Source: an uncultured delta proteobacterium (lineage in GTDB: Bacteria; Desulfobacterota; Binatia; UBA9968). From it: a stretch of 64,000 nucleotides of DNA. The stretch lies in assembly GCA_963727625.1 (NCBI GenBank), contig CAVSHR010000004.1, positions 160,001-224,000 on the forward strand, read 5' to 3'. Below, in pieces: positions 6,046 through 6,516 of this stretch (its first letter is position 1; each line of letters opens with the position of its first letter). Position numbers and translations under genes: made by a program. The notes under the pieces were generated by a model. It saw only the letters and a program-made list of their open reading frames with translations. It made no database searches and was not told where the DNA came from.

Positions 6046-6516
6046 ATGGAATCACTGACTCGGCGGCGTTTTAATATTATGGTTGTGTCCGTTTTGCTTT
6101 TGTACCCCTGGAATGACGTTTATGCGCAGGCAAAACCCGCCGTGCAAGCCATCACGGTTTACAAGACACCGACTTGAGGCTGCTGCGATGGCTGGGTCAG
6201 CCATCTGCAAAAAAACGGTTTCAAAGTTGAAAAGAAAATCCTCTTCGGCAAAAGCTTTACCGATTTCAAGCGCAAGCACGGCGTGCCGGAAAGGTTTTAC
6301 GCATGTCACACCGCGCTGATCGGCGGCTACGTGATCGAGGGGCATGTGCCGGTCGATTTGATTTATAAACTTCTAAAAGAGAAACCGGCGGTGGTCGGTT
6401 TGGTTGTGCCGGGCATGCCTGCGGGCTCGCCGGGGATGGAAGACGGCCGGACGGAACCTTATGAAGTTTTGACTTTCGATAAGAACGGGCGCACAACGGT
6501 GTACGCGAAACGGTAG
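6046..6516 (+). CDS. DUF411-type exported metal-binding protein, probable selenoprotein (UGA at 6175-6177)
   Basis: ATG 6046 after GAGGG; TRRRF Tat-like signal; VYKTPT-TGA-GCCDGWVSHLQKNGF in frame with CHTA...YVIEGHVP...VPGMPAGSPGME; hairpin 6187-6205. Confidence 0.85.
6187..6205 (+). promoter_or_regulatory. putative bacterial SECIS element
   Basis: Perfect 8-bp stem GATGGCTG/CAGCCATC with GGT loop; loop starts 17 nt after the UGA. Confidence 0.7.

Follow-up and report, generated by a model that had tools for sequence, protein, structure and literature searches.

The 64,000-nucleotide (nt) stretch of DNA analysed here, called the window and used for all coordinates unless a contig is named, belongs to an uncultured delta proteobacterium (GenBank GCA_963727625.1, contig CAVSHR010000004.1, positions 160,001-224,000, forward strand). 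Positions 6046-6516 very probably form one gene for a periplasmic protein of the copper-binding CopG type (Pfam family DUF411), in which an in-frame UGA would be read as selenocysteine (Sec, U) by way of SelB. Judged from sequence, this U-x-C-C form of CopG is apparently a genuine and undescribed selenoprotein family with a standard recoding mechanism. In the mechanism that we propose, SelB with Sec-tRNA(Sec) would read the UGA at 6175-6177 as selenocysteine, and a stem-loop at 6184-6209, with a GGU loop that starts 17 nt downstream, would recruit SelB. The product would bear U-G-C-C where characterised CopG bears C-x-C-C, and Sec44 would act as a selenolate ligand and/or redox-active residue of the tetranuclear copper site. 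A preliminary description of this DNA had favoured such a selenoprotein variant over a pseudogene. This is now supported by relatives that share the TGA and by the presence of selA, selB, selD and tRNA-Sec in the same genome.

The gene and its in-frame TGA

The features concerned are the following.

6046-6516, forward strand: predicted coding sequence of a U-x-C-C CopG/DUF411 selenoprotein, 156 codons, with TGA as Sec at codon 44 and a TAG stop at 6514-6516
6175-6177, forward strand: in-frame TGA that takes the place of the first Cys codon in the CxCC copper-cluster motif; predicted to encode selenocysteine
6175-6186, forward strand: U-G-C-C motif (TGA GGC TGC TGC), aligned to the CGCC of CopG (PDB 6WIS)

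A single forward frame runs through this region (MESLTRRRF...VYKTPT-TGA-GCC-DGWVSHL...VYAKR-stop) and the TGA is its sole internal stop. A plain list of open reading frames (ORFs) splits the gene in two, 6046-6177 (43 amino acids (aa), ATG start) and 6283-6516 (77 aa, GTG start). Translation of 6046-6516 bears out the earlier statement that the TGA lies in frame between the upstream part and the ORF starting at 6283. Elsewhere in the window TGA is an ordinary terminator and closes 18 of the 47 long frames.

The read-through product belongs to Pfam DUF411 (PF04214), with an E-value of 1.6e-24 and a score of 85.8 bits where the cut-off is 27. A profile built from the protein and its relatives matches one solved protein, CopG (PDB 6WIS/6WJE), with E 3.2e-39 over positions 34-153. 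In this alignment CGCC falls over U-G-C-C and the PGMPvGSPGM block is shared. The position first given for the UGA, at the first Cys of the CGCC motif of a DUF411-type protein, is thus confirmed, and the family motif quoted with it, VYKSPTCGCC, is seen in many of 62 homologues that carry Cys at this site (Cys forms).

Conservation of the TGA within the order

A six-frame search covered 61 genomes: the window's own and those of 60 relatives in its genus, family and order. It gave 27 matched places in 25 genomes. Exactly one in-frame TGA is present in 25 of these places (24 genomes), which, the window's own excepted, are 48-79% identical to the query, and in all 25 the codon aligns with the first Cys of CxCC. 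The other two places are a stop-free paralogue (locus L048; 43% identical, with TGC at the first codon of the motif) and a fragment of only 33 residues (L046, from an unpublished genome).

The segment upstream of the TGA is conserved together with the rest. Of the 25 places with the TGA, 20 have an ATG 39-47 codons 5' of it, and the KTPT/ITVY strand that precedes the TGA is conserved among the orthologues. Pairwise differences at codon positions 1, 2 and 3 number 810, 638 and 1531 in the 10 codons before the TGA, and 7633, 5300 and 17021 in the 110 codons after it. This excess at third positions on both sides indicates that both halves are translated in one frame under purifying selection. The preliminary description had allowed for a TGA unique to this genome. 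The codon is instead common to 25 of 25 places in the order and to 13 loci of other phyla, and on this comparative evidence it is not a lesion.

The family is patchily distributed within the window's phylum: a sample of 400 further genomes from it gave no match at E<=1e-5. No RNA sequencing run was listed as containing the sequence, and a single DNA run contained a small share (0.12) of its words. One relative (genome G037), assembled as a single contig, contains two identical copies of the Sec gene (at about 3.29 Mb and about 4.45 Mb of contig C1; loci L129 and L130). Both belong to an inverted duplication that spans at least 13.1 kb at 99.95% identity, reaches the contig end and includes a fragment of a Mutator-family transposase. 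The duplication could be real or an artefact of assembly.

Sec and Cys forms outside the order

Scanning named genome contigs gave 80 loci, 75 of them readable by the motif pattern and five unreadable. The first codon of the motif is TGA in 13 of the readable loci and TGC or TGT in 62. The alternation of TGA and TGC that had been proposed as a check is therefore found at this very codon, and the TGC of the paralogue L048 is a further case. The titles of the records with TGA are uncultured delta proteobacterium, Candidatus Binatia, Chloroflexota/Caldilineales/Anaerolineales, Acidobacteria, Gemmatimonadota, Candidatus Rokuibacteriota (L081, from an unpublished genome) and Burkholderiales; on these readings the U-x-C-C form is present in at least six phyla. 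In every sequence read the first motif position is U or C, and in none of them does Sec occur at any other position of the motif.

For a quick maximum-likelihood tree of 99 distinct proteins we masked the Sec/Cys column and retained 122 columns. The tree places 28 Sec forms in one clade (support of 97% in the Shimodaira-Hasegawa-like approximate likelihood ratio test, SH-aLRT), which includes the window's order, records with Binatia titles and one metagenome-assembled genome each from Chloroflexota and Acidobacteria. Sec forms outside this clade occupy four or five other positions. Three from Chloroflexota group together (support 92), the Gemmatimonadota loci fall among the Cys forms of that phylum, the Rokuibacteriota locus is sister to a Cys form of its own phylum (support 92) and the Burkholderiales locus has a separate position. 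Parsimony counts seven Sec/Cys changes on this tree. Since the well-supported branches force only one of them, repeated conversion between Cys and Sec is plausible rather than demonstrated.

Selenocysteine decoding machinery

The preliminary description had named absence of selABC as an objection. The window's genome contains selA (607.5 bits), selB (397.5 bits) and selD (377 bits), all over the curated cut-offs and adjoining in a row (contig C5, 715112-719466; loci L001, L009 and L010). A tRNA-Sec lies about 50 kb away (C5, 768830-768920; L014), recognised both by Rfam (76.7 bits, over the cut-off) and by ARAGORN (tRNA-SeC, anticodon tca). The other Rfam tRNA-Sec-like matches that were fetched are all below threshold and correspond to ordinary tRNA-Ser, tRNA-Leu and tRNA-Cys(gca); five weaker ones were left out. 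The selD gene has its own in-frame TGA, within G-U-A-A-K, and 33 nt past this codon a 6-bp stem with a GUC loop; UxxK is the motif listed for SelD of the Sec type (PMC13188914, Table 1). No canonical Sec formate dehydrogenase (alpha subunit) was found over the cut-off in this genome.

Among the 61 related genomes, 54 contain selB. In the scan of named genomes, selB exceeds the cut-off in 12 of the 13 with a TGA form. Of the 62 with a Cys form the first 50 were searched, and selB is over the cut-off in 14 of these; Fisher's test gives p 3.5e-5, with the reservation that related genomes are not independent.

A SECIS-like hairpin downstream of the UGA

Two RNA elements resembling or accompanying a selenocysteine insertion sequence (SECIS) are predicted.

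6184-6209, forward strand: SECIS-like stem-loop, with an 8-bp upper stem (6187-6194 paired with 6198-6205) and a GGU apical loop (6195-6197) in the minimum free energy (MFE) structure
6174-6224, forward strand: possible lower helix enclosing the UGA, in which 6174-6182 pairs with 6216-6224 (Gly-Phe codons); weak evidence

The hairpin letters at 6187-6205 are GATGGCTG-GGT-CAGCCATC, and the lower part of the stem-loop adds three pairs (6184-6186 with 6207-6209) and one bulge. The 8-bp stem and GGT loop had been recognised at the outset; the distance of 17 nt then attached to the stem fits the start of the loop, and the stem itself begins 9 nt after the TGA. Compared with dinucleotide shuffles, a 54-nt segment folds at -22.4 kcal/mol (z -4.41, none of 200 shuffles as good) and a 41-nt segment at -15.7 kcal/mol (z -2.47, 2 of 200 as good).

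We scored the sequences with our own implementation of the bacterial SECIS (bSECIS) model given in PMC13188914 (section 5 and Fig. 2 legend). In this model the apical loop measures 3-9 nt and has a G in its first two positions, the upper stem measures 4-16 bp, the loop lies 16-37 nt from the UGA and the MFE is <= -7.5 kcal/mol. The element in the window, with its GGU loop, an upper stem of 8 bp, a spacing of 17 nt and an energy of -14.7 kcal/mol, fits it. A compliant hairpin is present in 34 of 36 Sec forms and 34 of 63 Cys forms, and the energy of -7.5 is reached by 26 of 36 and 26 of 63, respectively. Cys forms also pass the energy rule because the codons of the conserved W-V-x-H-L stretch (TGG GTG NNN CAC CTG) are self-complementary. 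Folding energy alone thus separates the two forms poorly.

The Sec forms are set apart by loop and stem length. Of the 36 Sec forms 25, and of the 63 Cys forms 3, have a hairpin of at least 5 bp whose loop starts with GG or GU 16-21 nt after the first codon of the motif. The loop is GGU in 16 Sec forms and in a single Cys form, and Gly, encoded by GGT, stands at residue x of W-V-x-H-L in 15 Sec forms and never in the Cys forms. Stems are long in Sec forms outside the main clade: 12 bp in L083, 9 bp in both L081 and L101, and 8 bp in L086.

Within the order the hairpin uses two registers, with the loop at +17 or at +20/+21. In the register of the window (+17) the Asp-Gly codons pair with the Ser-His codons. 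The second register (+20/+21) is the one chosen by RNAalifold; 87.5% of its cells are paired, a value that none of 500 shuffles attains. When the 36 Sec forms are taken together, the helix formed by columns 19-27 and 31-39 has 71.6% of cells paired and a covariation score that none of 500 shuffles reaches; the pair 21-37, for example, is CG in 13 sequences, GC in 13, UG in three and unpaired in seven. Covariation, the other check that had been suggested, is accordingly seen for the helix over the Sec forms but not for the window's own register.

In the possible lower helix 81% of cells are paired among 24 orthologues. It gives no covariation signal, since conserved residues fix both of its sides. 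Two Chloroflexota genes (L107 and L127) are predicted to form only such a helix, between the UGA-GGCUGC stretch and the Gly-Phe codons. Chloroflexota genes without the hairpin may use an atypical element; some genes are described as doing so (PMC13188914).

Compared with the consensus bacterial SECIS (of the Escherichia coli fdhF type), the candidate element is likewise a stem-loop inside the coding sequence just past the UGA, and it agrees with the four constraints. It differs in having two registers in one order, in being absent from three Chloroflexota genes and in showing no similarity to an Rfam family (no match at E<=1 for positions 5900-6700 of the window).

The protein and its predicted copper site

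The N-terminus contains a candidate export signal.

6046-6126, forward strand: probable signal peptide MESLTRRRFNIMVVSVLLLYPWNDVYA, with a basic n-region, a hydrophobic core and V-Y-A before Q28, read by eye

In the profile alignment the solved CopG chain begins only at position 34. The visible hydrophobic leader and the homology to periplasmic CopG suggest that the protein is exported to the periplasm. The leader includes T-R-R-R-F (6058-6075, residues 5-10, T-R-R-R-F-N), a twin-arginine-like stretch; most orthologues have only R-x-R-F or single arginines here. Export could follow either the general secretory (Sec) or the twin-arginine (Tat) route.

In CopG a tetranuclear copper cluster is held by CxCC and two methionines in a thioredoxin-like domain, and the protein is proposed to oxidise Cu(I) or to pass copper to other proteins (PMC7558416). 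The same article describes CopG-like proteins as periplasmic, as often linked to copA, cusCBA and multicopper-oxidase genes and as adding to copper resistance under anaerobic conditions. By homology to 6WIS, the window protein is predicted to have the thioredoxin-like fold. The x-C-C, CHT, EGH and PGMPxGSPGM blocks are invariant in the Sec forms, as are the columns of C44, C46 and C47 in the alignment (with U written as C). M124 and M131, also invariant among the orthologues and aligned with 6WIS, are predicted ligand candidates only.

The protein shares with Pseudomonas aeruginosa CopG (6WIS/6WJE) its family, its length, an N-terminal leader and the x-C-C, CHT, EGHVP and PGMPxGSPGM blocks. 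It differs in that its gene has TGA (Sec) in place of the codon for the first Cys, together with a SECIS-like hairpin, and in that the gene in the window's genus lies outside any cop/cus cluster and precedes an NMT1-like gene. We infer a copper-site CopG in which Sec would provide a softer, more nucleophilic ligand or redox centre.

Relation to known selenoproteins and database annotation

The most recent catalogue of prokaryotic selenoproteins lists 119 families and subfamilies (PMC13188914, 2026, Table 1) and contains no entry for PF04214, DUF411, CopG or U-x-C-C. Within the article texts that our search covered, we found no description of a DUF411/COG3019/CopG selenoprotein or of selenocysteine in Binatia. 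The main texts of BSepDB and deep-Sep mention neither copper, CopG nor DUF411; their supplementary tables could list the family. No NCBIfam family matches the protein.

The catalogued selenoproteins that handle metals (PMC13188914) are the SO_0444-family Cu/Zn efflux transporter (UxC), a cation-transporting P-type ATPase (UxxC), CopZ-family (2Fe-2S)-binding proteins (GxUC, CU) and MbdU. Like the family described here, they have Sec in place of Cys in a soft-metal motif and were predicted from Sec/Cys pairs and a bSECIS. They have unrelated folds, and none has PF04214, U-x-C-C or a multinuclear copper cluster. Thioredoxin-fold selenoproteins with UxxC or UxC motifs (Trx, Grx, DsbA-like and 'Thioredoxin-like selenoprotein Sec.2', UxC) also place Sec first in a Cys-rich motif, but these are dithiol or selenol-thiol oxidoreductases of other Pfam families, whereas the motif of the window protein is a predicted metal-cluster site. 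Some thioredoxin-fold selenoproteins are exported.

In the sequence databases the best 120 of 7748 relatives are nearly all 105-106 aa long and cover 67-68% of the query. The names among these 120 are 'hypothetical protein' or 'DUF411 domain-containing protein', never selenoprotein. Such records of 105-106 aa are without the export signal and the metal motif, so both their annotation and their predicted function would be wrong.

If the proposal is correct, it adds a family beyond the newest catalogue of 119 (PMC13188914) and puts selenium at the metal-binding centre of a protein for copper homeostasis; Sec is already known to coordinate Mo, W and Ni (PMC1088965, a survey from 2005). The natural Sec/Cys pairs could be used to ask what Sec gains in a copper site, and the family could be used to ask how a coding hairpin that already exists turns into a SECIS.

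Alternative explanations

The alternative that survives best keeps the selenoprotein and gives it another job: a thiol/selenol oxidoreductase, or a carrier of another soft metal or metalloid working with the NMT1-like protein encoded next to it. Two downstream genes are relevant here.

6538-7560, forward strand: NMT1/THI5-like periplasmic substrate-binding protein, beginning 22 nt past the stop of the Sec gene (Pfam PF09084, 84.5 bits)
7563-7991, forward strand: 142-aa protein with no Pfam family, next after the NMT1-like gene

By tblastn, an NMT1/THI5-like gene, sometimes tandemly duplicated in the genus, stands beside the DUF411 gene in 18 of 24 loci of relatives (L023-L045 and L047) and at L049 as well. 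Both downstream genes keep synteny with the Sec gene throughout the genus. With these conserved neighbours, and with a fold that is described as thioredoxin-like (PMC7558416) in a class of proteins that are mostly redox enzymes (PMC13188914), a non-copper role is conceivable. The Sec protein nevertheless keeps every residue block of the copper-cluster CopG (x-C-C, CHT, EGH and PGMPxGSPGM). In other phyla, Sec forms adjoin a multicopper oxidase gene (L083), a CusB-like/outer-membrane-factor pair (L086) or P-type ATPase genes (L112 and L127). Linkage to copper genes is common in the CopG/DUF411 family without defining it. We therefore consider a non-copper function unlikely, and favour a copper-site protein.

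It is far less probable that the UGA is decoded as Cys or as some other standard residue, either through SelB with a Cys-charged tRNA(Sec)-like tRNA (a route that the preliminary description had mentioned) or by near-cognate read-through; the product would then be a plain C-x-C-C CopG reached in an unusual way. The inserted residue is not readable from sequence, and the hairpin and the dependence on selB would look alike under Cys decoding. In addition, two database proteins carry other residues at the site. One (P0002) has Ser and is near-identical to the translation of locus L027; if its codon is TCA, this is one base from TGA. The other (P0063) has Trp, most simply the result of gene calling under a code in which TGA is Trp. 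Against this, selA and a Sec-type selD adjoin selB, so that Sec-tRNA(Sec) can be made, and the only tRNA-Sec match over the Rfam threshold is the one that ARAGORN also calls tRNA-SeC(tca), the fetched sub-threshold ones being ordinary tRNAs. A need for Cys could be met by TGC, as it is in 62 homologues, and a TGA held over 48-79% divergence points to selection for what UGA delivers. No observation made here supports a special tRNA that reads UGA as Cys, and decoding as selenocysteine remains the reading that we prefer.

That the TGA is a real stop, owing to a pseudogene or sequencing error or separating a 43-residue leader peptide from an internally started, truncated DUF411 protein, is extremely improbable: gene callers do stop there, as the short database relatives and the two ORFs listed here illustrate, but a lesion would not recur at one codon throughout the order and at 13 loci elsewhere, purifying selection has preserved the reading frame, the start codon, the leader and the ITVYKTPT strand of the upstream segment, and translation begun past the TGA would yield a product with neither the export signal nor the family-defining U/CxCC metal site.

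Several results count against a copper-site selenoprotein decoded through the hairpin. When the codons are resampled synonymously, the fold of the window (-15.7 kcal/mol, compared with -10.7 +/- 2.6) is only moderately unusual, with 4.15% of 2000 resamples as low. Ten of the 36 Sec forms fall short of -7.5 kcal/mol, and a hairpin of at least 5 bp stands at the same place in 25 of 63 Cys forms, so that it is not exclusive to Sec. The window's own register was rejected as a consensus structure for the order: among 24 orthologues it shows no covariation, with 71.3% of cells paired and 370 of 500 shuffles pairing as well. L107 and L127 gave no model-compliant hairpin, and by a stricter criterion L112, also from Chloroflexota, gave none either. 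As to the machinery, selB was not found in three of the 24 relatives that carry the TGA (G001, which is 65% complete, G019 and G027), nor in one of the 13 other TGA-form genomes (G467, unpublished). Near the gene, neither the window nor the genomes G029, G037 and G039 of the same order showed genes of the cop, cus or multicopper-oxidase type. Since the neighbours in the window and its genus are not copper genes, a role in copper handling is predicted from homology. Finally, selenium insertion, export, copper binding and the chemical effect of Sec are predictions from sequence.

A bolder joint proposal can be attached to the copper-site selenoprotein. Sec44 might bridge a multinuclear copper cluster, giving a natural, exported Cu-Se(Sec) metallocluster, and the coding sequence of W-V-x-H-L might have served as a proto-SECIS that enabled several independent Cys-to-Sec conversions (in the Binatia-type clade, Chloroflexota, Gemmatimonadota, Rokuibacteriota and Burkholderiales). 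We put this forward tentatively, as a possibility to be taken seriously but on balance not one that we would expect to hold in full.

Other neighbouring genes

The nearest Atlas clusters of the 142-aa protein are unnamed proteins, most commonly from Chloroflexota and Binatota. Two genomes of a sister family in the same order have a DUF2231 membrane-protein gene near the Sec-CopG gene (L131, 7230-7880, forward strand; L129, 10222-10869, reverse strand). In both, a short-chain dehydrogenase gene adjoins and a GMC oxidoreductase/gluconate 2-dehydrogenase subunit pair is nearby; no copper genes were seen there.

One further gene was assigned in this part of the window.

8327-9082, reverse strand: TenA/THI-4/PQQC or haem-oxygenase-like protein (Pfam, 61 bits)

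An ORF of 267 aa on the opposite strand (8276-9079, forward) was rejected as a gene, as it looks like an antisense shadow of the TenA/haem-oxygenase-like gene. The occurrence of TenA-like and NMT1/THI5-like genes beside the selenoprotein gene could, we presume, hint at pyrimidine or thiamine salvage.

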